The translations under genes and the position numbers were made by a program. Of a stretch of DNA of 64,000 nt, positions 1,936 to 55,640 are shown piece by piece. Position 1 is the stretch's first letter. Every line of letters starts with the position of its first letter. The stretch spans positions 27,218,001 to 27,282,000 of the forward strand of contig CM114271.1 of the NCBI GenBank assembly GCA_050084515.1, written 5' to 3'. Origin of the DNA: Blasia pusilla. Taxonomy: Eukaryota. The notes under the pieces were generated by a model. The model ran no database searches, had not been told where the DNA came from, and was given only the letters and a program-made list of their open reading frames with translations.

Positions 1936-4089
1936 CTGCAACTACACCAAGGGACCCTATCATGCGATGCCAAATAATCAAGATCGGTTTAGAATTATCC
2001 AATACCTTTATGGACTCGATAATAGCACTCCTGACATGTATGGACAACCCCCATGAGTGGGGCTAGGACCAACTCAAGGAGTGCAAATGACAAAGGGTAC
2101 AAGTAATGGCAAGTCATATATATATATAGAGAAGTATCTTCCCTATTTGGAGAATTTCTTCCTCGTGTTTTGACTAATAAGTAAGTAACCTGATATCGAT
2201 GTGGAGAGTCTGTTTCTAGGCATGAAGATTTGCAAAGTGGGATGGAGTCTTGACTAAAGTGTTTCATGTGTGTAGCAAACTATACGACTCTAGGCTTTCG
2301 ACGGGCAACCGTAGGGACAACATACACACCAAACTCAGTGACTGAGAGCAGTGTGCGAGGCGAGGGGGTGAAGGTTGGAAAAGTGGGTGTGAACAAATCT
2401 TTTTGGGGGGCTGGTATTCTGGCAAGAGAGAGTAAGAGAGGAGAGGAAGAGAGGAAGAGAGGAGAGTCTCTCTTAAAAAAAAAAGGGCCAAATCCGCCTC
2501 CTCTCTTCAAAACTTTTTGACATATTTGAAATTTTTGTTTGCTTTCAAATTCATGAAATCTTTAGAAGAGAGTAGGTAGTGGTCCACATTCGGGCCTAAA
2601 GAAACCTTCTTTTTCCAGGGGGCGAAAAAAAAGTAGACATCATAAGACCACTACAAACATTTTTCCATCACTCTCCATGTGAGCCTAAGTTTCTTAACAT
2701 TACCTGTCTCGGTCTACAAAAAGCAGTGCCCATGGGTATTTTTGTTGGAGGACCACCCGTATGCCAACCTCTCTTTTTGCAAGGATTGTTGCCTGCATCA
2801 TGGCCTCCCCTGAATTGCCCCATAACCAACTTTCTGTTGGTTATGAATGGTGTCTGCTCAAGACCAACTTTGTGAAATGTGAACACATGAGAGGATAATT
2901 GAACCAAAAGATTGTTAGCTGTCTCGAGTAAAGACGAACTGACGTCCCTTCATTCAGATCCTAAAGCTGAGAAACCGAGAAGCTGCACCCCTCCCAACCC
3001 GTAAGAAACCTCACCATAAGAAAGGAAAGATTTTTAGAAGTGATTTTCTTCCACCCTGCACCCACGACAATCTAACATGTTGGGAATCCGAAATGGCAAT
3101 CCGACAGGTAGTAGGAATCCTGCACATCTTAGACAAGAAAAGAAGCCTACAATTGGTTTGACGAATGTAGGGGAAGGAGCCAAAAGTTAAGAAGCCCGCC
3201 ACAATGCGTCAGAACCTGGTCTCATAGGGAAAGAGTCCGATCACTCAAGCAGAATCCGACAGCTTGCCTAAAAATGGTTAAAAAGTTGCAGTGGGAAAAA
3301 GCAAAAAGTTGCAACTTGTCGGAATCATACGGGTTGCAAAATTATAATTCTGAGTAGCTAAAAGAACACAATCCACAAGTCCAAAAAAATATTCCAGCAA
3401 ACTTTTACAAATACCAATATGGGTTGAAAAAATCTCGTCCTTTATTACCTCCGAAGGAACCTCGGAAATGTACATTTAACCTAGTCTATGATTTCTTCAG
3501 CCTCATCATCTACAAATTTACTCCTAACTCTCCTCGGTGACAGTACAAAAGGAATGTCCTGGGATACAAGTGGCTCCTCTGGCCGATTGTAGACGGGGAT
3601 CGAAAATGTTGGCGAATTCAAGAGCCTTGGCCCCCCCTTAGGTACGCCATAACAATCCCATGTAACCTGATTTGAGTCCCACCGCCTTCCTCGGCAGTAT
3701 ACCTTGTACGCTCTGCAATGTGACACCCATCCAGTATCAATATGTGCCCCGTCCTTGGTAATACCATGATGGCAATCGCACAGGTAGAAGGAATCCAACA
3801 CGTCTGAGAGAAGAAAAGAAGCCTACGCCTGCCTTTACGAGTTGAGGGAAAGGTGCCAAGGGAAGAAGCCCGCCAGACTGCCTCTTAAGTTGGACCAATA
3901 GGGAAAGAATCCGATCAGGCAACCTGTGGTAATCTGAGGTGCGGTAAGAGGAGAGGAAGAGAGGAAGAGAGGAGAGAGGAGAGAGAAAACTACCTTCAAT
4001 CGAAATAGATACTTTTTTTTGAAGAGAATTTCCGTTGGGTTGAAGAGAGGAAACTTTTTGTGTGAATTTTTTTGCACTTTTGTTGAACC

Positions 4090-7290: not shown

Positions 7291-8269
7291 TTTATAGTGA
7301 ATAGGAAACAGATACTCCTGAATGATTTTTACTGACAAGATGAATTCGGTGGGGGAGATTGTGTGACACAATGGATCCAATTCTGTAACACATTCAATTG
7401 TGGTGCAATATGTTCCCTGATTTGGGAAGCAGAGGGTTGCGCATCACTTGGAACCCGTCGGAGTCCTGGTAACTTAGAAATTACCCAAAGCTTACGGCTG
7501 GCAACCCGTCGGCATCGGACAAAGTTGCACGCCGCTAAACATTGTCGAAGCGAGCAACCCGTCGCTCTCCGACGACTTGCTGGGATACCGCTCCTTCTTG
7601 CTCGAAGATGCCGGAGGCGTGCAAACCGTCTATTCCCGGCGAGGCGTGCAACCCGTCGCCGCCCAACGGGTTGCGCAAGGGCGTTGCCTTGTGGTACAGC
7701 CAGCCAGACTCCGACGACTTGCACGGGAAGCCATTGGTGCAAGTCGTCGGAGTCGGGAGTCGTCGGAGTCGGGTGCGTGCCTCCGCCATCCTTGATAAGG
7801 GAAGCGTGCAACCCAAGAGTCTCCGACGGATTGCCCAAAATACGTCCCGTTCCCGTCCCAAACACGACGGAGGCGCGCAACATGTCGGTCTCCAACGGCT
7901 TGCGCGGGTACCTCGCGTTGTTTTCCGAAGACGACGGAGGCGCTCAACTCGTCGGTCTCCGACGGGTTGCTCGCGCACGTGGCGACATTCGAAGGATGGC
8001 GGAGGCACGCAACATGTCGGTCTCCGACGGGTTGCGCGGGTACCTCGCGTTCTTTTCCTAAGACGACGGAGGCGCTCAACCCGCCGGCCTCCGACACAGG
8101 TTGTTTCTCGCGCCGCGTGGCGGCGTACCAGGATGGCGGAGCCGCGCAATCTGTTGAACTCCGACGGGTTGCAATTTTTCACGTCCGGACTTCCGTAACA
8201 TTCGGCACGTCGTCGTCGAAAGGACGACGGGACCCAACGGTCAGCCCAACGGCTAGAAAAGTATAAATA
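7291..8269. promoter_or_regulatory. Divergent promoter region between transposase and cargo gene
   Basis: TATAAA on the minus strand (7291-7296) lies ~60 bp above the transposase ATG (7232). TATAAATA on the plus strand (8262-8269) lies above the cargo ATG. Both are followed by CTCATT repeats. The layout is conserved in copy 3 (~16577-17543) and copy 4 (~46605-47736). Confidence 0.55.
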
Positions 8270-8542: not shown

Positions 8543-9721
8543 ATGACGAGGAAAAAACACAAGCCAACAAGTCCGGAGCTTCACTCCCAAGTCCATTAGG
8601 ACTCTGCGTCGCTTCTCCTGCGCCTCGCTCGCGAATGAAATTAGGCAGCAGGAAATCGAGGAGCGGGAAAGGGAAGCCGAGATGCACAACCAAGTGCTTC
8701 TGGCCAGACGTGTTCAAGCGGCGCTAGATAAACAAAACGAAGAGGCCGAGACGTTGCAGGCTTTGAAGAAAAGGATCGCCCGGCGATTTAAAAGAGAGAA
8801 AAGAAGCGCCGACGCCGCGTGGGAGGGCGGAATTGGCTAAAGCGAGGCGGGAAAAAGCGATAGCCATTGACGATAGCCCAGCCCGTCCAACCGCAAGTGT
8901 TGAGATGCGGGAAATGTCCCCCACAAAGTCCGGGGACACAATCAACATAGTGGAAACAACACTAGTTCAACTCGATGACGACGAGGTCATGAGGACCGCC
9001 AGCGTGGAGATTCGCCTTCCGACGGGTTGCATCCGAAAACCAAAATCAACTTGGAAAACCCAAAAGCAACTGCAACCCGTCGGGTTCCGACGAGTGGATC
9101 TGGGACAAAACAACCCGTCGGACTCCGATAGGTTGATCCAAAGTCAGTTATGGAAAATCTTCTCAAGGCGACTTCTTTAGTTTCAGACATTGTTTTGTGC
9201 TGATTTACAGATGGACCACTCCTACGTGTACTACTTCATTCGGCCCGAGCACAATTTCCAGGTGTTCAAGATCCAGGATCCTGTGGATCCATGCTCAGAT
9301 GGGTATAGCTTAAATTCCCCCCCATGCTCAGATGGGTACAGTTTGTACAATTCCCCCCCGGGAATTTACATGCAAACAAGACCGCTCGGGAGGAAGGAAA
9401 AGTTGCGACCCGATGCAACGCTCATCGAGCTCTGCTCAAGGCCGGGTGACTTGGTGTTCGACTTAGTGGGCCTTTCGGCAAGTATCGAGGCGCTGGCAGA
9501 GTGGCGGGAACATTCTTCGCCTCGAGGGAAGGGGGAACTATTTGACCTTTGCAAGGAGGCAAAGCGAGAATACAAAAGGCTCGTTAGGCGTACAACTCTC
9601 CACCGGCCGAGAGCTCCGGTTCAGAGCCACCCTTGGTAGTGACTCCATCGTCACTTCCAACGATTCCCAAAATCGGGAGGGCAAGGCCGAAAGTGATTTT
9701 GCAAGAGCTCTCGGACGATGA
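8543..9721 (+). pseudogene. Cargo gene of copy 2, with the ParB and motif-IV portion deleted
   Basis: Exon 1 homolog is joined at ~9010 to the last intron. The last exon reads TLIELCSRPGDLVFDLVGLS with frameshifts. Confidence 0.75.
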
Positions 9722-12700
9722 CGAGTGAGTTCAAAGAACTCAACTGACTTGACTCTGACGTTTGGAGTAGGGAGTTTTTTGATTATTTTGGCAAAAGATT
9801 TCATAGAATAGATCAAATGTACAGTTCCGAGCTTTTTTTGGATGATATAAAGCAGAAGATTTTTTCGATCGATGGTGGTGCTTGTAAATGTTTGGTGATC
9901 ATTTTGTCTTTTTGAATGTGATCGTCTATGTACTCCACAGTCTTCTACTTTGCAACCCGTCGGATTTCTCCTGCTTGCAATTTTCACTTTATGACCACTG
10001 CAACCCGTCGGATTTCTCCTCCTCGCTTTTTGACCACTGGACCCTTTTTACCACCTCCAGGAAACCGATCTGATTCCGACAGGTTGCCTGATCGGATCCT
10101 TTCGGATCAGGCAGTCTGGCGAGCTTCTTCCCTTGGCACCTTCCCCTCAACTCGTAAAGGCAGGCATAGTCTTCTTTTCTTCTCTCAGGCGTGTTGGATT
10201 CCTTTCTGTCGCGGTTGCCATAGTGGTATTACAGGGGGACGGAGCGGATATTGATACTTGGATGGGTGTCACATTGCAGAGCGTACAAGGTATATCTTTG
10301 CCGAGGAAGGCGGTGGGACTCGAGAGACATGTTACATGGGACCGTTATGGTGTACCTAGGGGGCCAAGGCTCTCGGGTCGCCAACATTTTCGATCCCCGT
10401 CTACAACCGGCCGGAGGAGCCACTTGAATCCTAGGACATTCCTTTGGCATCACGAGGAGAGTTAGGAGTAAATTTGTAGATGACGAGGTGAAGAAATCAT
10501 AGACTAGGTTCAATGTACATTTCGAGGTTCCTCGGAGGTAATAAAGGACGAGATTTTTTTCAACCCATAATTGTGTTTGTAAAAGTTTTTGGAATATGTT
10601 TTTGGACTTATGGAGGTGATGCAAGAGAAAGGCCCAAAGATCAGTCGCCCAAGAACAAGTCAAGAAGATTGTACAAGGTGATAATGCAGCCAAGTCACTC
10701 CATTGACCTCAAGCCTAGAGGAGACAAGGGAGATGGTGTAGGCACTAGGAGTCTCAGTGGTATCCAATGAAGGAGATAGAGTGCTTGATTTCTTTGTTGT
10801 AGAGGAGGGTTTGAACCAAGGGGTGGATCTAATTGTTAGGGCCAAGAAATGAAGAATAAGGGGCTAAGAAGAGGTCAATGGAGGCTGAGCTCAAATGCTT
10901 GGACTCTTGTGGGCTAGAAGATTCCTCATGGAAGCCTAGAGGACCTCATTTGAAGGCCATAAATCTTGAGAATCAAGGGAGATATCTATAGAGTTGAGAG
11001 GATCCAAGGAGTGATTTCGGAAGATTTGTGTAGGTGGAGCTAAGTGGAGGTGTGAACTGAGGGGGGGGCTCGGAACCAGATTGAGAAGAAGCAAGCATGG
11101 GAAGAATATAGAGGTAGATCTCACCTTCAAGCATGTCCAAGAGACAGTCGAGCCTATGCCATCAATGTTGCTCAAGAGGCTTTAGTTAGGCAGGTTGAAG
11201 TAGATGAGGTAGAAATTTCAGGCGAGTAGATGCCTTGGAGTAGATGCTTAGGGTTGGCATCGGGTGGTCCTCCAACAAAAATACCAAGGGCACGCTTTTT
11301 GTTGACCAAGATGAGGAGATGGAAAAATGTTTGTAGTGGTCTTATGATGTCTACTTTTTTTCGCCCCAAGGAAAAAGGAGGTTTTTTAGGGCCAAATGTG
11401 GACCACTACCTACTCTCTTCTAAAGATTTCATGGATTTGAAAGCAAACAAAAATTTCAAATATGTCATAAAGTTTTGAAGAGAGGAGGCGGATTTGGCCC
11501 TTTTTTTAAGAGAGACTCTCCTCTCTTCCTCTCTTCCTCTCCTCTCTTACTCTCTCCCGCTGGCTAATGGTAATTTGACACGTTACTGGAAGTGGTAAAA
11601 GGAAAAACCAAACGGGTTGCAAAATAGAAGTCATGAGTACATAGCGATCACATTTGAAAAGACATAAAAAATGTTCAGCAAACTTTTACAAGCACCACCA
11701 TCGTTCGAAAAAATCTTCTCCTTTATATTATCTGAAAAAAGCTCAGAACTATACATTTGATCTATTCTATGAAATCTTTTGACTCATCATCAAAAAACTC
11801 CCTACTCCAAACGCCAATTTTGATCAAGTGGTCGTTGAGTTCTTTGAACTCATGTCATCGTCCGAGAGCTCTTCAAAATTACTTTCGGCCTTGCCCTCCC
11901 AATTTTTGGAATCCTTGGAAGTGACGATGGAGTCACTACCAATGGTGGGTCTGGAACTGGAGCTCTCGGCTTCGGTGGAGAGTTGTACGCCCCAACGAGC
12001 CTTTCGTATTCTTCCTTTGCCTCCTTGCAAAGGTCAAACGATTCGCCTTCCCTTGAGGCAGAGAATGTTTCGCCACTCGCCAGCGCTTTGATACTTGCCC
12101 CGAAAGTTCCACTAAGTCGAACACCAAGTCACCGGCCTTGAAGCTCGATGAGCGTTTGCACGGGGTTGGCAAGATATACTTGCATGTAAATTCGGGGGAA
12201 TTTACAAACATCTCGAGCATGGATCCACAGGATCCTCGGATCTTGAACCCTGGAAATTGTGCTGAAAACGAGGAGTGGTTTGAAGACGTTGGAAACAATG
12301 TCAAGAACTAAAGAAGTCGGCTTGACTCAGAGAACTTTCTCAATTACTAACTTTGATCAACTCGTTTGAGTCCGACGCGTTGTTTTGTCCCGACCAACCC
12401 GTGGCCTTCCGACGGGTTGGTCGTGACAAACAACCCATCAAGCTCTTTGTTGTTTTTGTCCGTGAGCAACCCATTGAAGGTGATTTAATTTTAGAGCAGC
12501 CCATGCTGGCCGAGACCAACTCGTCGCTATCGATGAGGATTGCTGACTTTCCGGAAACACAGGAAAAACCAAAAGCGCAACCCGCCGGGTTGCGATTTAC
12601 ACCACGATTTTCCTCGGTATTCGGGAAAGATGCAACCCATCGGAAACCAACGGGTTGCTCTCATCCAACCATGGGCTGCTCTAAGACAACCCGTCGCTTT

Positions 12701-13223
12701 TTCGACGGGTTGTGACAAAAAAACAACGGAGATAGATTTAACCCGAATTTGAAAATATATTTGAGATTATACTACAGGAATTGAGCCTTACCCGAATCAG
12801 ACTCGTCGCGGATCGGAGTGGGTACTCATTTTTTATGAGGTGCGGTAAGAGGAGAGGAAGAGAGGAAGAGAGGAGAGAGGAAACTACCTTCAACCGAAAT
12901 AGATACTTTTTTTTTAAGAGAGTTTCCGTTGGGTTGAAGAGAGGAAACTTTTTGTGTGAATTTTTTTGCACTTTTTTGTTCATTTATTAAACAATCCCAC
13001 AGTTTTTTTTTCCTCTTCCATATTTTGGCAACCCCTGTGAGTCCGACGAGTTGCAAATTGGACAAAATTTACAAAACTGAAAAATCATAAGTGTGGAACC
13101 AATCACTTTTTCCATCCAAGGTCTGGAAAAAATCTATCATTTGCCCCGGGCTGAATAGAGTTCAAGCTCAAAGTGAAGGTTGAGGAAAAATAAAAGTACA
13201 ATATAAAACCTCATTTTGCATCC

Positions 13224-16200
13224 TCAAAGTGGTTTGTTTAAAATACTTCGCACTTCTTTGAGGGATAGAATTGGTTGGTGGATTCCTACTCCTACCTCCG
13301 ACTCTCTTAAAACTACCAGCAACACATAGTACATGTGCTTATAAGGGAAATACCTTTTGCCACTTGTTTCTCTTTGGACAAAGTCATCACATGAACATGT
13401 GGGAAAGCAATAGATGTGCACCACATACACCCTTGTGACACTTGAATTTACAGTGTTGTTCCTAACCCAATACATCCTTCCTATTCCATTGCCACTCAAT
13501 ACATCTTTCCTGGCGATGATCTCCATTTTTGCCTCCCGAGCTACTGCAATTCGCTTTGCTCTCTCCACCGTTGGCCTACACATTATGTTTCTCTTCACCC
13601 CATTTCTAGACTCAAACAGAAATAATGGATTGAGATCATCCACCTTCTCCGGGTACATGTTGACATCAATTTTGGGTTGAATACGAAATGCGAAGGTCTC
13701 TGTAATGGGAACATGCTCCGAACTTCCCCCGTCTACGAGTCTGAAACCGCACTTGTAAGATTGTCCACCGTCTTGAGTGCGCACAGGTACTGCGGCGATG
13801 GGCCAAATCGTGGGGGTATTCCCGGGAGCTCCAATGGCAGCCGGATAAGACTTCTGGAAAGCGCAAGATTCATTTGGGCGGAAGAAGTACTTCAATTGAT
13901 CCCCGGTCCTCGTGAAACGATCAAAGGTTTTGAGTCCCCAAAACCCAGGCAAAGGTCATCCAGTCCTTGAACAGTTCTTATTTAGGAAAGTGCCGCATGC
14001 TCTCCTAATGCCATCGAGATCGCCGCCTCGCAGTGGGTCCACGCCCCTGGGTTGCTCCGAGATATATGCCACCGTTTTAGGTTGCAATCCACCTCCATTA
14101 TCGGAATCCCATATTGTTGAACCACCCCAATGACAGGATGTTGCGAACTTCCAACAACGGAGGGCTTTTGAAATAAAACATTCACTCATTTTGGAGAAGT
14201 AACTCCATCACGGATTTGGGACGGGTCCGGGGTCCCCAAATACCTGGGCGGTGTAATTTCCTCATCCAAATCAATCACCGGATCCGTTCCTCAATGCTGC
14301 CTCTTCACCTGCCTGAAGTCAAGATACTTATCTGGTCTCCACGAGTCTCGCTCGGACTGCTCTACCACCATCTATATGGGACGTCTTGAAACCCGCCCAC
14401 GAATATCCCCACCAATGTGTACGTCTTGCTCGAGTGGAGTTCCAGCTACGCACCCGTTGAAGGCTTCGACATACAAATTTTCATCACCAGATCTCACAGC
14501 CGCCCTGACATAGAGCTTGTAGATCGACCGCCCTTTTCCTTTTGTTATGCCTTTTGTGAGAAAGATATGGGATGTTGCAGACTGTAGCATTGCTCTTGCC
14601 TGGTCTTGTTGGCATGCCTCCACAAGTGAAATTTGTTGGCATGCTTGTGACGACCTTCAAGAGGAATGAACACTTTCTCGCTCCACTTGTGTTAAAGGCG
14701 GAGGGCATTTTCATGAACGTTCAATCCCTGCAACGACGGCAATGTTAGAAGGGAACCAAAATAACCCAGGAGTCAAAGAAATAAGCGACCTGTCGGAACC
14801 AGACGAGTTGCAGGCCCGAGGCATCCCATGAACGACTCTGCGATCCGTCGGGTCTCGACGTATTGTAACCTTAAACCCACCTACTGCAACCCGACGGGTT
14901 GCAAGGCCGAGGCATCCCATGAACGACTCTGTGACCCGTCGGGTCCCGACGGGTTGCACACTCGGGACGACACCAAACATCTGGATGCAACCCGTCGGTT
15001 TCTGTCAGGTTGCACCCTTGGGCAACCCGTCTGTTTCCGTCGGGTTGCACACTTGGGCAACCCATCGCATCCGACAGCTTGCTTGGTTTCTTGGGTTTGA
15101 AATCCATATAATTCCCATGCTACTCATCCTGAGCTACAACTTTACAAACAATTCTCAGCGTGAGCTTGACATTTTGAAGACATAGGCCCTGGATCCCTCG
15201 CCTCCTTGGCCCATGAACTGCCATCTCTGAATGAATGGAAATCTGGAGTTGGCCTTGATTCTGGCGATGGCATCCATTTCGGCCGTCTTTCCATACAGAA
15301 CTCGTATTTGACGCAGAAAATTCCTGAAGCATTCAAGATCAGCGAGAAATGCGAGATTTTCCCAGAGTTGTTTCTCCTCAACCGCCGTGATCTCGCCCTG
15401 TCCAGGGATTCCAAGCAATTGTTCACAAATTTGTGATGCCGTTGTGAGCTTGATCACCCCGGGCTTGGAACCCGGAGAGTTTCTGAAGACCTCGGCTACT
15501 TTCTTCGCCACATCCTCCTTGATGTGTCTTTGAATTGCATCGGTCACAGGATGAGTGTGGGAGCCAACATGAACTGCCAGCCTTGTATACTCTCACGTGG
15601 AGGACACGCTCCAACGCAGAAGGGCGATCCCTGACAATGAGGACATCGATGGCCTCCCGGCGGTATGGTGACACCGACCTCATTTCTGCATTCTTGGGAG
15701 GAAATTGCGACGTATTGACTCGCCCGTTGCGCTCTAGATACGGGCATGCTGGACTTCTACACTCCAAGGCTCCCACGCATTGGCGGCGGGAGACAATCCA
15801 AGGATCATCTGGGATGGAAGCACTGGTCCGTTGAAGCCTGCACCATCGATGACAATCAGACTTTCTGTCCATACCCTTCAGGCATCCTCCATCCTTCTTT
15901 TGAGCAGGAGCAGCAAGTGGAAGCAACTCAAAAATGCAGTTACTATCGTACGTGGGCTCGTCGACAAGAATGTGCTTGAACATTTTCAAGGGCAGAGACG
16001 AAAGCAAACTATTGCCTGATACTCGCAAGAGAACGAGTAGGCGGACGAGAGGACCCGATTGGTGCCCGAAGCGGATCCACCGAGGTTGATAACATCCGGA
16101 ATCTCTTCGGGAAAAACAACATTGTTACGGCGTCAGCGGTTGAGTCGGCCGGATCTGCAGAGCTTGGAGTTGCAAACGAGAGCTCGGAGCACTAAGAAAA

Positions 16201-16518: not shown

Positions 16519-17792
16519 TCCAAGAAGATTCCAACGAGAGGAGACTGAGAATGAGAATGTGAATGAGAATATTTAATTTATAGTGAATAGGAAACAGATA
16601 CTCTGACAGATTTTTACTGACAAGATGAATTCGGTGGGTGACATTGTCTAACACAATGGATCCAATTCTGTAACACATTCAATTCTGTTGCAATATGTTA
16701 CCGGATTTGGGAAGCAGAGGGTTGCGCATCACACTTGGAACCCGTCGGAGTCCTGGTAACTCAAAAAATTACCCGAAGCTAACCGAAGCCTGCAACCCGT
16801 CGGCATCGGACGGGTTGCACGCTTTTGCTAAAGAGTGTCGAAGTGAGCAACCCATCGCTCTCCGACGAGTTGCTCGATACCGATCCTTCTTGCCTGAAGA
16901 TGCCGGAGGCATGCAAACCGTATGTTCCCGACGAGTTCCGCGGGTGCCTCGCCTTTTAGCCCAAAGACGGCGAGGCGTGCAACCCATCGCCCTCCAACGG
17001 GTTGCGCAAGGGGCTCGCCTTGTGGTGCAGCCAGCCAGACTCCGACGACTTGCACCGGAAGCCCTCGTTCCTCACCCTTGATGAGGGAAGCGTGCAACCC
17101 AACGGTCTCCGACGGATTGCCCAAGATACGTCCCCGTTCCCGTCCCAAACACGGCGGAGGCGCGCAACATGTCGGGCTCCGACGGGTTGCGCGGGTACCT
17201 CGCGTTGTTTTCCGAAGATGACGGAGGCGCTCAACCCGTCGGTCTCCGACGGGTTGCTCGCACACGTGGCGACGTACCCATGATGGCGGAGTCGCGCAAC
17301 ATGTCGGTCTCCGACGGGTTGCGCGAGAACCTCGCGTTCTTTTTCAAAAGACGGCGCTCAACCCGGAGTCCGCGGGTTGCTCATGACATGTGGCGAAGGA
17401 CACAGGATGGCGGAGCCGCGCAACCTGTCGGACTCCAACGGGTTGCCATTTTTCACGTCCGGACTTCCGTAACATCCGGCACGTCGCCGTCGAAAGGACG
17501 ACGGGACCCAACGGTCAGCCCAACGGCTAGAAAAGTATAAATAGGGCAAAAATCGCTCATTTCGGTTTCTCATTTCGCGATCTTCATTCCTCACTCCTCA
17601 CCGCCCCGGCAGCAGAAATGATCGATCTGAAGGGCATTTCACACGGCGACACATCGCGAGTCGATAGGAGGGAACGAGAGCGAGACGGTTCGACTGAGCG
17701 ATAGGGGGATGATTCGAGCTCCCATCTCGACATCAGCAAGGCGACTGATCAAGGAATTCGTCGTGGACATAGGTGGAGGCATTTTCGGAAAA

Positions 17793-20700
17793 ATGACGAG
17801 GATAAAAACACAAGCCAACAAGTCCTAATGGACTTGGGAGCTTCACTCCCAAGTCCATTAGGACTCCTGCGTCCGCTTCTCCTGGGCCTCGTTCGGCTAA
17901 TGAAATTAGGCAGCAGGAAATCGAGGAGCGGGAAAGGGAAGCGGAGATGCACAACCAAGTGCTTCTTGCGAGATGTGTTCAAGAGGCGCTAGATAAATAG
18001 AACGCAGAGGCCGAGACGTCGCAGGCCTTGAAGAAAAGGATCGCCGACGAAAAGAGAGAAAAGAGGCGCCTGGACGCGTCGGTGAGGAGGGCGGAATTGG
18101 CTAAAGCGAGGAGGGAAAAAGCAATAGCCATTGACAATAGTCTTGCCCGTCCAACCGCAAGTGTTGAGATGCGGGAAATGTCCCCCACGAAGTCCGGGGA
18201 CACAATGAACATAGTGGAAACTACAGAAGTTGAAATCGATGACGACGAGGTCATGAGGACCGCCAGCGTGGAGATGGTGGACATGGCCGAAGAAGTCGGA
18301 GAGCGGTCATTCTCGACTCCAAGCCCGGCGGAGGACATCGACCTCTATCAGATCGACGAGTTCCCAGTCGATTTGCCAGCCCCCGTCTCACACAAGTTAG
18401 CTGGTCAAGAAACCGACCCCATTTTCGAGCGGGTAAGAGAGGTTCTGGGTTTTTTTAATTATGTGAATTGCAATTCATTTGGATTTCATATGTAGCTTAT
18501 TCCTCTTGTCCCGGTTCTCACAGGTGGTAAAGCAGATGGCACTCATGGAGGCCACAACGCCCCGAGGATTCCACTCTGCCGATTGCGGACAATGGAATAC
18601 GTCCGCGAAATTCAGTCCGACGAGGACATCGCGAAGCTAAAACAATCGGCGGCAAGAGCATCCTACGTCAACAGCTTTCCTCCCTTCTATGTTCAGCCTT
18701 ACGACGAGCATGGAACCCAAGCTCTGGTTACCGAGGAGGACTTGGAAAAGCTCGACACATTCAGGAGGATGCGAGACCAGGACTTCAGAAGGCAAGTTGA
18801 GGGCACGGAATTCAGCTGGATGAGGAATCTGCATTTCTTCATCTGGGATGGGAATCACAGGTTCATGGCGTGGACCAAGTTTGCGGAGGAGCGCCCAACT
18901 CATTGGAGGCACATTTCTGCGTGAAGGCAGTGGTCCTTCACCCATACCCTCATGACATGGCGACGGTGGAGATGGCAATGCATGCCATGAACACGTAAGT
19001 ATCTTTAACACTTTCGCAACTCGTCGGACTCCGACGAGTTGCTTGATTGATGAATGGGTTAGGTTTGTTTTTGCCAAAAGCAACTCGTCGGACTCCGACG
19101 GGTTGCTCGATTGCACGCTTTTTCGGATCTTTTTTTAAGATTGCCACTCGTCGGACTCCGACGACTTGTTTGATTGAACGTAGATTTAACTAGTTTATGG
19201 CCCAAAGCAAACCGTCGGAGTCCGACGGGTTGCTCGACAGGCCGCCTTGTGAGGATGTTTTTTGAAGAATGCAACTCGTCGGACTCCGACGAGTTGTTCG
19301 AGTGACTGCAGGTTTAGAAGGTTTTTTCCCCAAAGCAACCCGTCAGAGTCCGACGGGTTGCTTGCCTCGAAGCTATTTTTCCCCATATCAACCCGTCGGA
19401 GTCCGACGGGTTGATTTCGGCCAAAAACAGTTTCGAGGCAAGCAACCCCTCGGACTTCGACGGGTTGCTTTGGGGAAAAAACCTTCTAAACCTGCAATCA
19501 CTCGAGCAAATTGTCGGAGTCCGACGGGTTGCATTCTTAAAAGAACACCCTCACAAGGCGGCCTATCGAGCAACCCGTCGGACTCCGATGGTTTGCTTAC
19601 CAGGCATTAGCAAATCTGAATGCAATCCGTTGGACTCCGACGAGTTGCATCATTTAGCTCGTTGCTAGAATCCGACCTTGAGCTGTGACGACCCGTCGGA
19701 GTCCGACGGGTTGCAGAAACCCATGTAATTTCCTGACGGGTTGAGTTTGGATGTGCATGATTGTATCGGAGGGGAATGTCACCCACCATTGGATCCAAGA
19801 CTGCGACTGGTGAGGAAGGTTCTTACGACGCACCCGAGAGAGTACAGGGGTTCTTGGCGATGCCTCGTCAATCGATCTTTGGCAAAGGGTGCTCAGATTA
19901 AGAAGAAAACTTGGGCAAACAAGTTTATTTCTCAAGATGCAGCCGTAACCATCCTTTGCTGGTCGAAGATACATGCCGCAAGAAAGCGCTTTGACCGAGT
20001 GGAGCGGAGGGAGAAGGTATCTGCGTCTGAGCGCGCCAAATTCATCCAAGCTGCAGTATCCGCTGCAACGAAATACACGACGAGCAAGATGTAGCGATAC
20101 ATCAGCATTCTCAACCTCGAACTTGGTCCATAGTTCTACAAGGAGCTGAAGGCGATTATCAAGCGCCAGCGGAAGAGGGATGAAGATCCGCATGGTCTGA
20201 TTGGGGAGAAAGTGTCGCTGGATCGCGTGCATGGGTTTGCGTTGTCCGGGATAAGCGAGTTCAGGAGGATACGACTGATGAAAATCAGTCTCGAGGGCTC
20301 AGAGGCCCAGAAGAGGGCGGCACACCATCCTCCGGGTGTGTCTGATCCAGTGATCTCGCATTGGCTACGCGAATGGTCGTTCTGGGACACATTGCGGGTA
20401 ATCGGGAAGTCCGTGCTGGACGGTCTGCAAGCGGAGCTCAGAAGATTGGAGCCCATTCCGCCGGAAGCAAACCTTGAAAGTTCTGGAGATTACGAGGTTT
20501 GGCTCGACGACATCCTGGACAAGCCAACAAAAAACCCAGGATTCAAGACCATGTTCAAGGTTTGCGTCCTACCTCAGGCAGAGCTTGACGAAGAAGTAGA
20601 GGGGATCAAACGGGATCAAGCGAAGAAGAAGCAAGATCTAGAGGAGCAGACGGCCGATAATGTTTGATTAAAAGCTGCCCAACGGATGGTCTTCACGTAC

Positions 20701-22814
20701 CTCGTCAAGTGTAAGAACGCAGGTACGTGGGGAAAATTACCCGTAGCCTTGAAGTTGTGGGCTTCGCCGCCGGATGCAGAGACATTCTCCATGTACGACG
20801 TGGAGATGGGGCAACACATGTCCGATTGGGAAGTGGAGAATTGCCCCATTTGGCTCGACTTCAACGACCCTGAAGACATCGCGGATAAGAACTTACGAGT
20901 GCTTCATGATGCAGTGGCCTCAGGACAAGACGACATCCCCAATTTCATCCAGCCTGAAGACTTCTTTGGAGGAGATGCAGAAGAGCAGGCCCATGAGACA
21001 GCTGAGTTGGCTTCCAAGGTCCGGACAGCCAAAGACAAATCCACAACGAGTCTCAAAGGCAAGGCGAGGGGAGGGAAAAATTCAGAGGCCGAGTCTTCCC
21101 AAAGAGAGGCTGAAGATTCAAGGCCAAAGGCGGAATTGTCCGGACGAGCGGGGAGAGAGGGTCGGACCAGGTCCTCGGCGAAAAAAATGCCACCAGAATC
21201 CGAGGTCATAGAAACCCCGACAAGCCGTCCCCAAGCTAGGGAGAAGCGGAAGCGAGAGGTGCCCGGGTTGTCCCAAGGAGAATACAACCCATCGTCCTTG
21301 GGAAGACACTGACAAACAACGACGCGGACAAGTGTCCTCCTTCAGTTCACTCCTTTACTGGATGAGCTGAAGAGCTTCAGTTCTCAAGCGTCGACACCAG
21401 CCATCAAAAAATTGACAACGCTGGGACGGAAGCTCCAACAAAATGGGCACGCTGCCTAGACGGTGAATGGAGTGGTCGAAGAGGTTGCGGTGGATCTCTT
21501 GATCGCCGATCTGCCCTCGGGGTTGCGACTTTGGGGCGAGAATCCGTCGGACGAGGTACCTGAGTGGAATGTGCCGCTCACTTATGACCAATTGCACTTT
21601 TGTTCTCCTTTGCATACGCCTATCTGAGTGACAGGGGCTGCTTCCTGGTGTTGACTGGAGGGAGCGAGGACAAGCTCTTCAACCTCCAATGCGTCAAGAG
21701 GTCGCTAAAGTGGAGGACGGCCCAATCGTGGATCATAAAAAACGAGTACCCACTCCAATCCGCGACAAATCAGATTCGGGTAAGGCTCAATTCTTGTACA
21801 ATAATTTCAATTATCTTATAATGATGTGTAGAATGAGAGTCAATCTGGGTTTTTTTTTGTCCGTGAGCAACCCGTCGGAAGGCGACGGGTTGCTGGCTTA
21901 GAGCAGCCCATGCTCGGCTGAGAGCAACCCGTCGGTTTCCGACGGGTTGCATCTTTCCCACATACATAGGGAAAACCACGGTGTACCTGCAACCCGTCGG
22001 AACCCGACGGGTTGCAGTTGCTTTTGTGTTTTCCCAGTTGATTTTGGTTTTTGGATGCAACCCGTCTCATAGCAACGGGTTGCTCTTAGGCGAGCATGGG
22101 CTGCTCTAGGCCAACAACCCGTCGCCTTCCGACGGGTTGCATCCAAAAACCAAAATCAACTGGGAAAACCCAAAAGCAACTGCAACCCGTCGGGTTCCGA
22201 CGGGTTGGTCCGGGACAAAACAACCTGTCGGACTCCGACAAGTTGATCCAAAGTCAGTTATTGAAAATGTTCTCAAGGCGACTTCTTTAGTTTCTGACAT
22301 TGTTTCCAACGTGTTGATTTACGGATAGACCACTCCTACGTCTACTGCTTCGTTTGGCCCAAGCACAATTTCCAGGTGTTCAAGATCAAGGATCCTCTGG
22401 ATCCATGCTCAGATGGGTATAGCTTAGATAGTTTGTACAATTCCCCCGGGAATTTACACGCAAGACAAGACCCACTACGGGAGGAAGGAAAAGTCGCCAC
22501 CGATGCAACGCTCATCGAGCTCTGCTCAAGGCCGGGTGACTTGGTGTTCGACTTAGTGGGACTTTCAGGGGCAAGTATCAAAGGCGTCTGGCAAAGTGGC
22601 AGGAACATTCTCTGCCTCGAGGGAAGGCAGGAACTGTTTGACCTTTGCAAGGAGGCAAAGGCGAATCGAAAGGCTCGTTGGGCGTACATCTCTCCACGGC
22701 CGAGAGCTCGGTTCCAGAGCCACCCTTGGTAGTGATTCCATCGTCACTTCCAACAATTCCCAAAATCGGGAGGGCAAGGCCGAAAGTGATTTTGCAAGAG
22801 CTCTCGGACGATGA
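17793..22814 (+). pseudogene. Cargo gene: coiled coil + ParB/Srx-like domain + beta-class N6A/N4C DNA methyltransferase-like domain (4 predicted exons)
   Basis: Predicted exons 17793-18432, 18524-18994, ~19746-21779 and ~22325-22814, with GTAAG donors. Motifs: IPLCRLRTMEYVR, FFIWDGNHRFMAW (DGNHR 18847-18861), VDLLIADLPSG (~21490-21522), AYLSDRGCFLV, LIELCSRPGDLVFDLVGLSGASIKGVWQSGRNILCLE. Scattered stops and frameshifts. Confidence 0.75.
19010..19745. repeat. Dense array of 27-bp palindromes in cargo intron 2
   Basis: More than ten degenerate copies of GCAACCCGTCGGA(C/G)TCCGACGGGTTGC, e.g. 19081-19106, 19390-19413 and 19691-19714. Confidence 0.9.
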
Positions 22815-24623
22815 CGAGTGAGTTCAAAGAACTCAACGACTCCGCTTGACTGCAATGTTTGGAGTAGGGAGTTTTTTGATAATGAGGCAAAAGATTTCAT
22901 AGAATAGATCAAATGTACAGTTCCGAGCTTTTTTCGGATGATATAAAGCAGAAGATTTTTTCGATCGATGGTGGTGCTTGTAAATGTTTTCTGATCATTT
23001 TTTCTTTTCGAATGTGATCATCTATGTACTCCATGGACTTCTACTTTGCAACCCGTCGGATTTCTCTTGCTTGCAACTTTCACTTTATGACCACTGCAAC
23101 CCGTCAAATTTCTCCTCCTTGCAACTTTTCGCTTTTTGACCACTGCACACTTTTTACCACCTCCAAGCAACCTATCTGATTCCGACAGGTTGCCTGATCG
23201 GACCCTTTCCCTGTTGGTCCAACTTAAGAGGCAGTCTGGCGGGCTTCTTCCCTTGGCACCTTCCCCTCAACTCGTAAAGGCAGGCGTAGGCTTCTTTTCT
23301 TCTCTCAGACGTGTTGGATTCCTTCTACCTGTGCGATTGCCATCATGGTATTACCGGGGACGGAGCAGATATTGATACTGGATAGGTGTCACATTGCAGA
23401 GCGTACAAGGTATACTGCCGAGGAAGGCGGTGGGACTCGAGACAGGTTACATGGGACCGTTATGGTGTACCTAGGGGGGGGGGCCAAGGCTCTCGAATTC
23501 GCCAACATTTTCGGTCCCCGTCTACAATCGGCCAGAGGAGCCACTTGAATCCCAAGACATTCCTTTCGTACTGTCACCGAGGAGAGTTAGGAGTAAATTT
23601 GTAGATGACGAGGCTGAAGAAATCATAGACTAGGTGAAATGTACATTTCCGAGGTTCCTTCGGAGGTAATAAAGGACGAGATTTTTTCAACCCATAATGG
23701 TGTTTGTAAAAGTTTGCTGGAATATGTTTTTGGACTTGTGGATTGTGTTCTTTTAGGTACTCATAATTACAATTGTGCAACCCGTATGATTCCGACTTTT
23801 TGCTTTTTGCCCACTACAACTTTTTAACCATTTTCAGGCAACCTGTCGGATTCCGACAGGTTGACTGCTTGAGTGATTCAACTCTATCCCGGTGAGACCA
23901 ACTTCTGGCGCATTGTGGCGGGCTTCTTGACTTTTGGCTCGTTCTCCTTCATTCGTCCAACCAGTTGTAGGCTTCTTTTCTTGTCTAAGATGTGCAGGAT
24001 TCCTACTACCTGTCGGATTGCCATTTCGGATTCCCAACCCGTTAGATTGTCGTGGGTGCAGGGTGGAAGAAAATCACTTCTAAAAATCTTTCCTTTCTCA
24101 TGGTGAGCTTTCTTACGGGTTGGGAGGGGTGCAGCTTCTCGGTTTCTCAGCCTCAGGATCTGATTTGTTCACATTTCAGAAAGTTGGTCTTGAGCAGACA
24201 CCATTCATAACCGACAGAAAGTTGGTAATGGGGAAATTTAGGGGAGGCCATGATGCAGGCAACAATCCCTGCAAAAATAGAGGTACCCACCCGGGTGGTC
24301 CTCCAACAAAAATACTAAGGGCACTACTTTTTGTTGACCGAGACAGGGAATGTTAAGAAACTTAGGCTCACATGGAGAGTGATGGAAAAATGTTTAGGGT
24401 GGTCTTATGATGTCTCCTTTTTTCTCGCCCCCAGGAAAGAGGAGGTTTTTTTAGGGCCAAATGTGACCACTAAATACTCTCTTCTAAAGATTTCCTGAAT
24501 TTTAAAGCAAACAAAAATTTCAAAAATGTCAAAATTTTTTGAAGAGAGGAGGCGGATTTGGCCTTTTTTTTTTTTAAGAGAGACTCTCCTCTCTTACTCT
24601 CTCCTGTCAGAATACCAGCCCCC

Positions 24624-25195: not shown

Positions 25196-25225
25196 CAAAA
25201 CCTTGACACCCCTGTGACACCCTAA

Positions 25226-25585
25226 ATGTGTAGGCCAACTGTGGAGAGAGCAAAGCGAATTGCATCAGCTCGGGAGGCAAAAATGGAGATCATCGCCACA
25301 AAAGATGTCTTGAGTGGCAATCGAATAGGAAGGATGTATCGGGTCAGGAACAACACTGTAAATTCAAGTGTCACACGGGTGTATGTGGTGCACATCTGTT
25401 GCTTTCCCACATGTTCATGTGATGACTTTGTCCAAAGAGAGACAAGTGGCAAAAGGTATTTCCCTTGTAAGCACATGTACTATATGTTGTTGGGAGTTTT
25501 AAGAGAGTCGGAGTTAGGAGTAGGAATCCACCAACCAATTCTATCCCTTAAAGAAGTGCGAAGTATTTTAAACAAACCACTTTGA
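25226..25585 (+). pseudogene. SWIM zinc-finger C-terminus of the transposase (copy 1)
   Basis: ORF reads CFPTCSCDDFVQRETSGKRYFPCKHMYY and is the reverse complement of 13224-13583. Confidence 0.85.
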
Positions 25586-25988
25586 GGATGCAAAACGAGG
25601 TTTTAGATTGTACTTTTATTTTTCCTGAACCTTCACTTTGAGCTTGAACTCTATTCAGCCCGGGGCAAATGATATATTTTTCCCATACCTTGGATGGAAA
25701 AAGTGATTGGTTCCACACTTATGATTCCATTGATTTTTCAATTTTCTAAATTTTGTGCAATCTGCAACTCGTCGGACTCAGAGGGGTTGCCAAAATATGG
25801 AAGAGGAAAAAAAAACCGTGGGACTGCTTAATATATGAACAAAAAAGTGCAATACAATTCAAACAAAAAGTTTCCTCTCTTCAACCCAATGGAAACTCTC
25901 TTAAAAATAAGTATCTATTTCGGTTGAAGGTAGTTTCCTCTCTCCTCTCTCCTCTCTTCCTCTCCTCTTACCGCACCTCGTCTTTTTG

Positions 25989-35922: not shown

Positions 35923-37929
35923 ATGCTGAAGATGTTGCGCCTTAAGCTACCCGGAGGGTGCATTTTAATGCGGATTGTTGTTCTTATCTGTTTCTGGGCA
36001 AGTGACACCAGCGCAGAGGCTTTCGGGGTGAATTGGGGCAACATCGCGCGGCAGCCTCTTCCACCGGGAATCGTAGTGAAGATGTTGCAAGATAATAACA
36101 TTACTAGAGTGAAGCTATTTGATGCTGACTATAACACGCTGAAAGCACTCGTTGGGAGCAATATCGAGGTCATGGTGGCGGCACCGAATGATATGTTGAA
36201 ACCACTGGCGGGAAGTGAGAAAGCAGCTCGTGATTGGGTTAGGGAGAATGTGACTCGCTTTCTTTTCGATGGTGGTGTGAACATCAAGTAAGTTAACGTC
36301 TTTCTTTGGCCAGTTCAGCTCGTTACACGTAACGAGCTGCCTGCCGCCCCTCTGTTTCGAATGTTGGCCCGGCACTCGTATAGCGAACTGCATGGGAGCC
36401 AGGGGGGCCTTCTCAATTTCAATCTGTAGGCGTCCGCTCGCGAAAAGTTCAATCTAGCGTGTGGCACGAGTTGTCCAGGGAATTAGATGCCGAAGTGCTA
36501 GTGGTAGATGAGGTCTTGAATTGTTGTCAAGGCGGGATGCTCGATCTATTCCCTTAGTTGAGTTAGTGTGGTCGGAGAGCGTGGATTTTTTGGAAGGATC
36601 GCTGCTGTCACGTTTTCTGTATCTCCATGCTTCACTAGATCATTAAGAGTTTTCATTCAAGGTCCCCTCCGCGTATGGTCAAGATGTAGTTTATGTGCAC
36701 CATCGCTAGACTGGGTCTCCATGTGCATCAAATTCAAATGGCAGTCAGATTGTTCCTAAGATTCTAATTCGTCTCTACAATGCAGGTATGTAGCCGTTGG
36801 CAATGAACCTTTTCTGATAGCCTACAATGGCAGCTACCAAAACGTGACATTCCCCGCACTACAAAATATTCAGAAGGCGCTAGACGAGGCGGGTCACGGC
36901 GACAAGATTTTTGCAACTATTCCCTTCAACGCAGATGTACTCTGCGGGCCAACTGTAGATTGTTCATCACCGTCACAAGGAGTGTTCAGGCCCGACATAT
37001 CCGACCTTATGACAGGAATCTCGGCATCCTTAAATCGGACAGGAGCTCCTTTCAGCCTGAACATATACCCATTTCTCAGTCTAGCCTTGACTCCCGACTT
37101 TCCGTTGGAGTACGCCTTCTTTGATGAGTTTAGTCTTGTCGATCAGGGAACAGGTTCTGTCTACACCAACACGTTTGACGCAAGCTATGATACTCTTGTT
37201 GCGGCTTTGAACAAGGCCGGATTTCCAAATATGCACATCATTATTGGAGAGATCGGTTGGCCAACCGATGGGAATCAGTTCGCAAGTCTCGAGTATGCCC
37301 AGAAGTTCAACAATCAAGCCATGGCGCATCTTAAGCAAAGGAAGGGAACTCCCCTGCGTCCAAACATCGAGTTGGATGTTTATTTGTTCGGTCTGCTCGA
37401 TGAGAATTTGAAAAGTATTGATCCTGGTTCTTTCGAGAGGCACTGGGGTATATTTTACTACGACGGTAACCCTAAGTACGCGTTAGATCTTTCTGGTCAA
37501 GGAGATGCGAATGCCTGGCCGAAGCCTGCCGTGGGTGTAGACTACCTGGAGCCCAGGTGGTGTATCGTGAACCCCAGCGCTTTGGTAGATCCCCAGCTTC
37601 TAGCTACGAACGTCGATTACGCGTGTCAACGCACCGATTGCAGTGCCCTTCAAACGGGAGGCTCGTGCTTTGCGCTGGATCCCAAAACAAAGGCCTCCTA
37701 CGCCTTCAACAATTACTACCAGTTCAATTATCAAGATCAGTTTGCTTGCGATTTTGATGGCCTCGCCACGTTAGTGTCCAGCGATCCTTCTCCAAGTGCT
37801 CGACAGTGCAGATTTCAAATCGGATTGAACTACAAACCTCTCACAGCATCCGGCACCAGGTACCATGCGGAATTGTCCGCCACCGCGTTTGCCGTGGTAA
37901 TCGTCGCCTTGTTCCTATCTTATTTTTGA
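35923..37929 (+). CDS. Glucan endo-1,3-beta-glucosidase (GH17) with X8/CBM43 domain and likely GPI-anchor tail; exons 35923-36287 and 36786-37929
   Basis: Signal-peptide-like N-terminus then FGVNWG and VKLFDAD. The GTAAGT...TGCAG intron splices to NIKYVAVGNEPF. Also IIIGEIGWPTDG and FERHWGIF, an X8 Cys pattern (WCIV...YACQRTDCSAL...SC...ASYAFNNYYQ...ACDFDG) and a hydrophobic C-terminus. No stops. The start could instead be ATG 35932 or 35968. Confidence 0.95.
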
Positions 37930-53900: not shown

Positions 53901-55640
53901 TGCGCAGGAGCAAGCCCTCGAGACAGCGGAGTTGGTGTCCAAGGTCTTCACCGCCAAGGACAAATCTACAGCGGGTTTGAAAGCAAAGGCGAGGGGATCG
54001 AAGAATTTTGAGGCCGACTCTTTCAAAAAAGAGGCGGACACCTCAAGGCGAGAGGGTTGGACTTGGTCCTCTGCCAAGGAAACACGAGTGGAGTTTGAGG
54101 TAACAAAGACCCCCATAAGCTGACTGCAGACTCGGGAGAAGCGAAAGCGGGAGGCGCATGGTTTGTCCTAGGGAGCAGATAAGCATGTGGAATACAGTCC
54201 ATCATCTGGGAAGGCATAGAGAAACAAAAATCATGACAAATGTCCTCATTCACTTCACTCATCTTGTGGATTAGCTGCAAAGTATCAGTTCCTAGGAGTT
54301 GACCCCCGCCATCGACAAATTGACCATGCTGGGACGAAAACTTCAACAAAACGGGCACGCTCCCTCAATGGTCCATGGGGTGGTCGAGGAGGTGGCGGTG
54401 GATCTCCTCATCGCAGATTTTCCCTCAGGGAAACAAAAATCCGTCTGACACTGTCCCAAACAGGAATGTCCCTCTTTCCTACGACCAGATTGCGTTCTTG
54501 TTTTCTTTTGCATACGCTTATCTGAGTGACTGGGGTTGTTTCTTGGTCTTGACTGGAGGGAGCGAGGATGAGATCTTCAACCTTCGGTGCGTGAAGAGGT
54601 CGCTGAAGTGGAGGACGGCGCAATCATGGATCATCAAGAACGAGTATCCACTCCGATCGGCGACAAGTCAAGTTCGGGTAAGTGCTCTTAATCCAAATTC
54701 AACCCGTCGGATCCCAACAGCTTATGGCTGCGGTGTTGCAACCCGTTTGAAAGTGAAAAGTTGCAAATTTACCACAAGTCTCCATTGAGTGAGTGCAACC
54801 CATCGGAATCCGACGGGTTGCAAGTACTTGTGCTTTTCCTTATGTTTCTAGAGTGATGCAACCCGTCTGAAAGCAACAGATTGCCTTGAGCCAACCATGG
54901 ATTGCTCTAAGCCAGCAAGCTGTCGGCTTTCAACGAGTTTCTCATGGCAAGAAAAAACACTTACACTTGTAAAACAAATCGTGGGACTCTGACAGGTTGC
55001 TCTATTTTTAGGACTATAGGCCAAGTTCTTGTGGGTTGGTAATCAACAGGGACTAGAATGCACTATGGATATGTTGCACATTGTGTCACCATATTGAGAG
55101 TAGACCAGCGGTCGAGTAGCTCTTTCTTTTTGCTGACATTGTTTCCAACCTGCTTCTTTACACATGGACCACGCCTTTGTCTAGTGTTTTGTAAGGCCCG
55201 AGCACAACTTCCAGCTGTTCCAGATCCTGGATCCAGTCGATCCATGCTCCGATGGGTATAACTTAGATAGTTTATACAATTTCCCCCAAGGAATTTACAT
55301 GCAAGACGGGACCCTCTTAGTTGGAGGAAGGGAAAAGTCCCTTGCCTTGATACAAACGCTCATCGAGCTCTGTTCAAGGCCAAGTGACTTGGTCTTCGAC
55401 TTAGTGGGCCTATCAGGGGCGAGTATTAGAGGCGCCTGGCAGAGTGGGAGGAACATTCTCTGCCTTGAGTTAAGGCAGGAACTTTATGACCTTTGCAAAG
55501 AGGCAAAGGCAGATTATGATAGGCTAGTGGGAGCATACAACTCTCCTCCAAAGCCGAGAGCTCCGGTTCCACACCCACCATTGATAGTGACACCATCGTC
55601 ACTATCAATGCTCGGATTCTCAGATTTAGGATCTGAATGA
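47961..55640 (+). pseudogene. ParB-like/DNA-methyltransferase-like cargo gene, copy 4
   Basis: FFIWNGNNRYMAW (~48985-49025), VDLLIADFPSG (54398-54430), and REKSLALIQTLIELCSRPSDLVFDLVGLSGASIRGAWQSGRNILCLELRQELYDLCK (within ORF 55299-55640). Confidence 0.75.
49065..51890 (+). mobile_element. Truncated Ty3/gypsy-like LTR retrotransposon: 5' LTR (49065-50337), PBS and gag
   Basis: LTR bounded by TGTCGT...ACGACA. PBS TGGTGCTTCCACTGAGAG at 50340-50357. Gag-like ORF ~50404-51909 with RFDGKNITKY and zinc knuckle CIWCDSVEHQRREC. It interrupts cargo exon 2; pol and the 3' LTR are absent. Confidence 0.8.

Follow-up and report, generated by a model that had tools for sequence, protein, structure and literature searches.

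In a 64,000-nucleotide stretch of the Blasia pusilla genome (assembly GCA_050084515.1, contig CM114271.1, positions 27,218,001 to 27,282,000 of the forward strand; hereafter the window) we analysed a methylase-like domain that is split by an intron and forms the C-terminal part of a gene with three exons and about 1,200 codons. This gene belongs to a very high-copy, two-gene, intron-bearing mobile element of a plant-like genome. Judged by profile comparisons, the domain is a real, very diverged homologue of the class-beta (PF01555-type) amino-methyltransferases. Its signature motifs depart from the canonical forms, and the comparison of two copies of the gene shows, as far as substitution patterns can, that the departures were a selected state in the lineage leading to these copies. 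The domain has probably lost the ability to transfer a methyl group to an exocyclic amine, and its remaining role would be structural, or to bind nucleic acid or to dimerise.

The methylase-like domain and its motifs

Four copies of the stretch around this domain were delineated in the window: copy 1 (9012-10094, plus strand), copy 2 (12838-11612, minus strand), copy 3 (19601-23200, plus strand) and copy 4 (52546-55603, plus strand). The start of the window holds part of a fifth copy. An earlier, sequence-only reading had drawn attention to the interval 21490-22640 of copy 3, which runs from the last part of exon 2 across a 545-base intron (21780-22324) into exon 3 and covers most of the latter. 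The domain is thus divided between two exons, with motif IV encoded in the first and motif I in the second (Table 1).

Most searches used the open frame 55185-55637 of copy 4 exon 3 as the query. Pfam family PF01555 (N6_N4_Mtase) was matched with an E-value of 1.7e-4 and 22.1 bits, below the gathering threshold of 26.7 bits, the exons having been scored singly; the counterpart in copy 3 reached 12.6 bits. Exon 3 also matches four DNA-methyltransferase families of PHROG at E<=0.006 (best 6.7e-6), 13 methyltransferase families of PADLOC (best E 2.1e-5) and one methylase family of NCBIfam (E 0.0033). All five matches in PDB are class-beta enzymes (M.RsrI, E 0.01; DpnA; MboIIA), and all 30 neighbours in the ESM Atlas belong to PF01555 clusters. 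A phmmer search of 1.84 billion representatives returned a fragment of a beta-class methylase as the sole true match; another match, P0001, was dropped as a repeat-protein artefact. In phages, 96 records match exon 3, and the 15 matches listed all fall on genes annotated as methylases or, for one record, on an unnamed open reading frame (ORF).

The best bona fide match is gp14 of the Bacteroides phage BT-TP2 (PQ571279.1), a DNA methyltransferase of 224 aa encoded two genes upstream of the terminase, which is 33% identical to exon 3 over 91 residues (E 3e-5). It resembles the domain studied here in compact size and motif order, but differs from it in being a single-domain protein with canonical DPPY, HE, HPTQKP and DTFGGSG motifs. 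A family hidden Markov model (HMM), comprising 107 of the 120 relatives of gp14 (those with 205-250 residues), matches exon 3 at model positions 117-215 with an E-value of 1e-8. In all profile alignments of exon 3 the sequence DLVGLSG falls on the D-x-F-x-G-S-G of motif I, and because exon 3 matches the methylase profiles in this register, the assignment of motif I is beyond chance. The same HMM sets both copies of exon 2 on 'ipdksvdaiitDpPy', although not significantly. With the rows of both exons placed in one alignment, no row being joined, global hhalign gave 195 collinear columns (P 6.2e-6) and paired D[L/F]PS with DPPY, HN with HE and DLVGLSG with DTFGGSG. The order of the motifs in copies 3 and 4, IV followed by I, is that of class beta (PMC7544214).

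Traced at the level of sequence, these matches establish the descent of the domain from the phage or bacterial N6-adenine/N4-cytosine DNA methyltransferases of class beta. For the element gene itself we found no relative outside this organism group (no eukaryotic one in protein searches and none in two metagenome scans), and no protein relatives were found for the middle region, 20134-20664.

The codons, read directly, give GAT CTG CCC TCG (DLPS, 21508-21519) at the motif IV position of copy 3 and GAT TTT CCC TCA (DFPS) at that of copy 4; the motif I position reads DLVGLSG in both. In copy 1, motif I reads DLVGLS (9460-9477) followed by a 2-base deletion, which is also present in 19 contigs (about 15% of the depth) of DNA run X1, and in copy 2, on the minus strand, it is DLVELSG (about 12118-12098). 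Of the four copies, only 3 and 4 show motif IV, copies 1 and 2 being without that exon. The sequence-only reading had called the motifs non-canonical in all copies. Its letters, including the variants of copies 1 and 2, were confirmed from the codons; the generalisation to all copies stands for motif I and has to be narrowed to two copies for motif IV.

Among the 107 reference methylases, the four positions of motif IV are D in 100%, P in 97%, P in 100% and Y in 100%, whereas here they are D, L/F, P and S, which does not match the consensus (D/N/S)-P-P-(Y/F/W) given in PMC7544214. The Glu of the HE block (E118, 100% of the references) is replaced by N, giving H-N. In motif I the Phe (F184, 95%) is replaced by V and the first Gly of GSG (G186, 100%) by L; the region reads D-L-V-G-L-S-G-A-S versus the class form D-x-F-x-G-S-G-T-T (FxGxG). 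The HPTQKP block of the references is not retained in copies 3 and 4 in the global profile alignment. PMC7544214 assigns stacking on the target base to the final residue of motif IV, proton abstraction to the first one, and contact with the adenine of S-adenosylmethionine (SAM) to the Phe of motif I.

Selection on the altered motifs and its interpretation

Copies 3 and 4 are both pseudogenes, with 7 and 11 in-frame stops, respectively, and with frame changes in both, but the coding frame can be traced through them without difficulty. Over 736 codons the ratio of nonsynonymous to synonymous divergence between them (dN/dS, Nei-Gojobori method) is 0.17, and for the methylase-like part (274 codons) it is 0.20, with dS of 0.68 and a bootstrap range of 0.20-0.38 for the ratio of the uncorrected proportions (pN/pS); controls with shifted frames in the same blocks gave dN/dS of 1.21 and 1.41. 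The motif codons themselves differ synonymously between the two copies (Ser TCG/TCA, Gly GGA/GGC, Leu CTT/CTA), and further synonymous differences, in codons for Val, Ala, Cys, Pro, Ile and Gln, lie inside or beside the motifs. Because the motif changes are shared, dN/dS is about 0.2 and the motif codons differ synonymously, both changes arose before the split of copies 3 and 4 and were under constraint after it. By this codon-level evidence, the non-canonical motifs are shown to be a selected state in the lineage from which copies 3 and 4 derive. The earlier claim that the deviations predate decay is borne out as well, in that they are common to two copies whose divergence (dS about 0.7) was mostly purifying.

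We consider it probable that the domain no longer methylates an exocyclic amine and is retained in a structural, nucleic-acid-binding or dimerising capacity. The ancestral lineage of copies 3 and 4 already possessed D-[L/F]-P-S, H-N and D-L-V-G-L-S-G and lacked HPTQKP, and purifying selection continued to act on the domain. The methylase-like domain could then serve as METTL14 and MTA9 do in class-beta dimers, or as proposed for the methyltransferase (MT) domain of DIRS1. Of the suggestions made by the sequence-only reading, catalytic death is plausible from the residues replaced, while SAM binding, base reading and anti-silencing are conjecture. We tentatively suggest, with considerable doubt, that the ligand could be the element's own CpG-rich 25-bp dyad (see below), the binding of which would help the element to escape or manage host silencing. 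Somewhat more doubtful still is the complete scenario, in which a phage-type methylase turned pseudo-enzyme would dimerise on the dyads of its element and shield them from host DNA methylation, or steer the latter, and would thus act as a device of self-recognition and anti-silencing.

Several observations weigh against the interpretation that we favour. No intact copy was seen, and the states of motif IV come from two lineages only (copies 3 and 4). In the recent pair, copies 1 and 3, dN/dS is 0.81 over 76 codons that include a frameshifted stretch, which compromises the comparison; this divergence would fit neutral decay following insertion. Motif IV has kept its Asp and one Pro, two of the three Gly near motif I are still present, and residual or altered activity is possible. 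The pieces of exon 2, the motif IV exon, yield no Pfam or PDB match when used alone, and hhalign with this exon alone gives P 0.044. The state of the motifs is a poor predictor of activity: in E. coli, no N6-methyladenine (6mA) resulted from retrotransposon Dam domains whose motifs are intact (bioRxiv 10.64898/2026.05.21.726589). Finally, the protein and the dyad are linked by co-location only.

The alternative that survives best, although we regard it as unlikely, is a working methyltransferase with unusual motifs, which would bind SAM and methylate DNA, RNA or protein via D-x-P-S and V-G-L-S-G in a rearranged pocket. Purifying selection fits any function, catalysis included. Motif IV has kept its Asp and second Pro, motif I its Asp, Ser and last Gly, and the conserved Arg and Glu further downstream are present as well. 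The PF01555 proteins of algal transposons are assumed to be active by the authors who described them (PMC12477816; bioRxiv 10.1101/2025.02.11.637652). On the other hand, the changes affect four separate signature blocks at once, the platform for base stacking (PMC7544214) is gone with the aromatic residue, and none of the 107 bona fide relatives departs from the Tyr or from the first Gly of GSG.

It is less probable again that the odd motifs reflect decay in a dead sub-lineage, with active master copies that carry canonical DPPY and FxGSG located elsewhere. All copies in the window are pseudogenes, and the family comprises thousands of contigs, whereas the motif states are known from the window copies; however, both changes are common to two lineages that are separated by dS of about 0.7-1.1 at dN/dS of about 0.2, and the motif codons for Ser, Gly and Leu differ synonymously between these lineages. 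That the resemblance to methylases is due to chance or convergence of an unrelated fold is very improbable: the Pfam score below threshold, the uninformative AlphaFold model of exon 3 (predicted local distance difference test, pLDDT, 41.8, too poor to use) and the lack of significance of the motif IV exon alone are in its favour, but six profile and feature libraries agree, each independently, on one family and on the columns aligned, and both exons are collinear on one domain.

The dyad arrays, the second gene and the surroundings

The 25-bp dyad, CAACCCGTCG-N5-CGACGGGTTG, contains four CpG and occurs at 68 sites with at most 3 mismatches, where 0 are expected. Every site falls within a copy of the element (window 1415-25789 and 47062-54820), with none in 25790-47061 or 54821-64000. 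In the region separating the two genes and in each of the introns the sites form arrays with a period of about 64 bases, in positions that are homologous from copy to copy (Table 1). Three of the 24 two-mismatch sites pair perfectly, versus about 0.4 expected, as if by compensatory changes; this signal was not used as evidence because two of the three represent one duplicated unit, and C-to-T and G-to-A changes at equivalent positions fit parallel deamination. The palindrome in intron 2 of copy 3 spans 218 bases with 86% self-complementarity, and the segment 21860-22250, folded as single-stranded DNA, has a predicted energy of -174.6 kcal/mol (z = -23.5).

Table 1. Positions of the element features in the window (.., limits as annotated; strand "." where the feature has none)
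Feature	Position	Strand	Remarks
Copy 3, whole accessory gene	17812..22750	+	pseudogene: 7 in-frame stops, at least 3 frame changes; collinear with copy 4 in tblastx
Copy 3, exon 1	~17812-18921	+	tblastx blocks, pN/pS 0.24-0.61
Copy 3, intron 1	to ~19744	+	splice sites less well defined
Copy 3, exon 2	19745-21779	+	tblastx; pN/pS 0.11-0.58 in exon 2 and exon 3 blocks
Copy 3, N-terminal half of the domain (exon 2 end)	21460..21779	+	DLPS for motif IV; 1-base deletion near 21590
Copy 3, intron 2	21780..22324	+	phase 0; 7 dyad sites; long palindrome 21990-22207
Copy 3, exon 3, C-terminal half of the domain	22325..22750 (end approximate)	+	H-N for H-E; DLVGLSG 22550-22570
Copy 4, N-terminal half of the domain	54374..54680	+	DFPS 54416-54427; frame change between 54430 and 54435
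Copy 4, exon 3	55164..55640	+	DLVGLSG 55398-55418
Copy 1, exon 3 only	9226..9636	+	stretch matching copy 3 18275-22122 deleted
Copy 2, inverted, 5'-truncated	11919..12839	-	exon 2 end, intron 2 and heavily decayed exon 3
Second conserved gene, copy 1	5202-6682	-	collinear with P0123
Second conserved gene, copy 3	15113..15953	-	collinear with P0123
Second conserved gene, copy 4	45656-46052	-	collinear with P0123
Dyad array between the divergent genes, copy 3	16793..17445	.	8 sites
Homologous intergenic dyad array, copy 1	7555-8171		
Homologous intergenic dyad array, copy 4	47062-47628		
Dyad array in intron 1, copy 3	19017..19713	.	11 sites, period ~64 bases
Homologous intron 1 dyad array, fifth partial copy	1415-1863		
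Homologous intron 1 dyad array, copy 4	51922-52639		

The donor of intron 2, TTCGG-GTAAG (the hyphen marks the junction), is invariant in copies 2, 3 and 4, and the acceptor has the consensus TTTACAG-AT(G/A)GACC, with the AG intact in copy 1 only. The introns are retained in the copies, therefore the element has been copied as DNA or as unspliced RNA. At identities of at least 80%, 18,625 contigs of one DNA run fall on the 3.6-kb stretch of copy 3. From two RNA runs, 180 and 219 reads fall on it, most of them less than 90% identical and therefore derived from other copies; they lie mainly in the orientation in which most stranded libraries yield sense transcripts. Read depth reaches 25-39 over motif I but is about 0 within intron 2, versus 1-3 in the flanking bins, and no spliced reads across intron 2 were reported from these two runs.

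In exon 1, the ORF 18496-18921 (plus strand) is open for 142 residues and contains 'FFIWDGNHRFMAW'. It has no match in Pfam, NCBIfam, PADLOC or the phage search, and two non-significant matches in PHROG (E 0.04 and 0.32), neither of them ParB. Its best PDB profile match, also non-significant, is a SET/NAP protein (histone chaperones), and its AlphaFold model (pLDDT 37.2) is too poor to use. Among its 30 Atlas neighbours, five are in a cluster with ParB_N in 11% of the members, seven are DUF6551 and 18 are unnamed, which is a weak lead. Its 'DGNHR'-like motif may resemble that of ParB, although the profile libraries and phage searches gave no ParB match.

The second conserved gene is located upstream of the methylase-like gene, and divergent from it, in copies 1, 3 and 4. 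Its sole database relative is P0123 (783 aa, E 9e-30), and neither of the two belongs to a Pfam or NCBIfam family or to a recognised transposase family. The middle part of the gene product is Cys-rich. A block of the form 'DNA..W.AIR..F...FHW.QS' may resemble one of the DDE transposases, without support from a library match; we suspect that the second gene may encode a transposase. Among the 91 ORFs of at least 110 residues in the window we found no families of reverse transcriptase (RT), RNase H, integrase or recombinase.

Long inverted repeats surround copy 1 (3372-3937 and 10069-10614, 85% identity, with a 96-base core of 95%) and the wider region of copy 3 (12837-13584 and 25225-25979, 93.5%), and could represent either inverted duplications or terminal inverted repeats. 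Copy 3 also lies between an open frame of 243 residues (13227-13955, minus strand) and its inverted duplicate (25226-25582, plus strand), 93.5% identical and without a family match; the frame may contain a SWIM-like finger, which no library match supports. A gag-like pair of ORFs at 50374-51906 (plus strand; 118 and 390 residues with one stop between them and a CCHC knuckle, no Pfam match) was considered as a part of the element and rejected, as neither copy 3 nor the partial copy at the window start has it and its place in copy 4 is within intron 1; it is probably a fragment of a nested retroelement.

Outside the element, the frame at 36760-37926 (plus strand, 389 residues) matches the domains GH17 (E 1.9e-43) and X8 (E 3.7e-17), has a C-terminus that is hydrophobic, and looks like an ordinary plant-type beta-1,3-glucanase gene. 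Helitron fragments at 40403-41758 and 59793-60431 (both on the minus strand) match Helitron_like_N (E 9.8e-57) and are about 68% identical to each other. The glucanase with X8, the Helitron fragments and the GT-AG introns characterize the window as eukaryotic and plant-like.

Comparison with known systems

We found no description in the literature of a degenerate PF01555-type domain conserved in an element of the plant lineage. Accessory genes of mobile elements that carry prokaryotic methylases have been described only recently, from algae. The present case would add a methylase domain that remained under selection after the loss of catalytic residues, in a land-plant-like genome where PF01555 is unexpected; it follows that at least some such accessory proteins may work by binding rather than by writing marks, and the protein and the 25-bp dyad constitute a concrete, testable pair.

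The closest parallels in organization are the accessory proteins of algal giant transposons. In Ectocarpus, Sola1-1_Ec32 encodes a 1104-aa protein with ParB-like and N4/N6 methylase parts on the strand opposite to the transposase (PMC12477816), and the red-algal Plavaka elements encode PAG2 (PF01555 and SET) and PAG3 (ParB and a 2-oxoglutarate oxygenase), with arrays of inverted repeats beside PAG3 (bioRxiv 10.1101/2025.02.11.637652). The algal proteins share with the one studied here a length of more than 1,000 residues, a PF01555-type domain, a multi-copy element and the location on the strand opposite to a second gene; the systems also share inverted-repeat arrays inside the element, and in the authors' proposal the protein would act on the transposon that encodes it. 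By contrast, the motifs of our domain are degenerate and have been conserved in that state, we found no SET domain, the host resembles a land plant or a close relative, and the partner gene belongs to no recognised transposase family.

A functional analogy is offered by VANC, an accessory protein that is encoded by its element and is presumed to target short motifs standing in clustered arrays there. The element studied here likewise combines an accessory protein with arrays of a short motif, the binding being conjectural in our case, while VANC bears no relation in sequence or fold to the methylase-like domain. The VANC anti-silencing proteins of the Arabidopsis VANDAL transposons are also named in bioRxiv 10.1101/2025.02.11.637652.

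Adenine-methylase-derived domains of prokaryotic origin are also known from eukaryotic retroelements. The MT domain of DIRS1 was judged likely inactive by Iyer and co-workers, who suggested a binding role (PMC4738411), and a preprint on DAM-TE reports that the Asn-Pro-Pro pocket is conserved in the retrotransposon domain (bioRxiv 10.64898/2026.05.21.726589). Those domains are Dam-like and reside in an RT-bearing polyprotein, whereas ours is of the PF01555 class beta, in an element with retained introns and without a detected RT or tyrosine recombinase. A DIRS-type retrotransposon domain was therefore rejected as an identification, given the Dam-like nature of the DIRS domain and the absence of RT and recombinase among the 91 ORFs.

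In its inferred fate, the domain is comparable with METTL14, which has EPPL, and with the ciliate MTA9. These share the class-beta fold and an eroded motif IV, and have been selected as nucleic-acid-binding or scaffolding subunits of dimers (PMC7544214). They differ in being host genes of the MT-A70 clade with an active paralogue, while the nearest relatives of the element-borne gene, which has no known active partner, are phage PF01555 enzymes. If the interpretation favoured here is correct, the gene would add to the short list of class-beta pseudo-methyltransferases a member from outside the MT-A70 clade.

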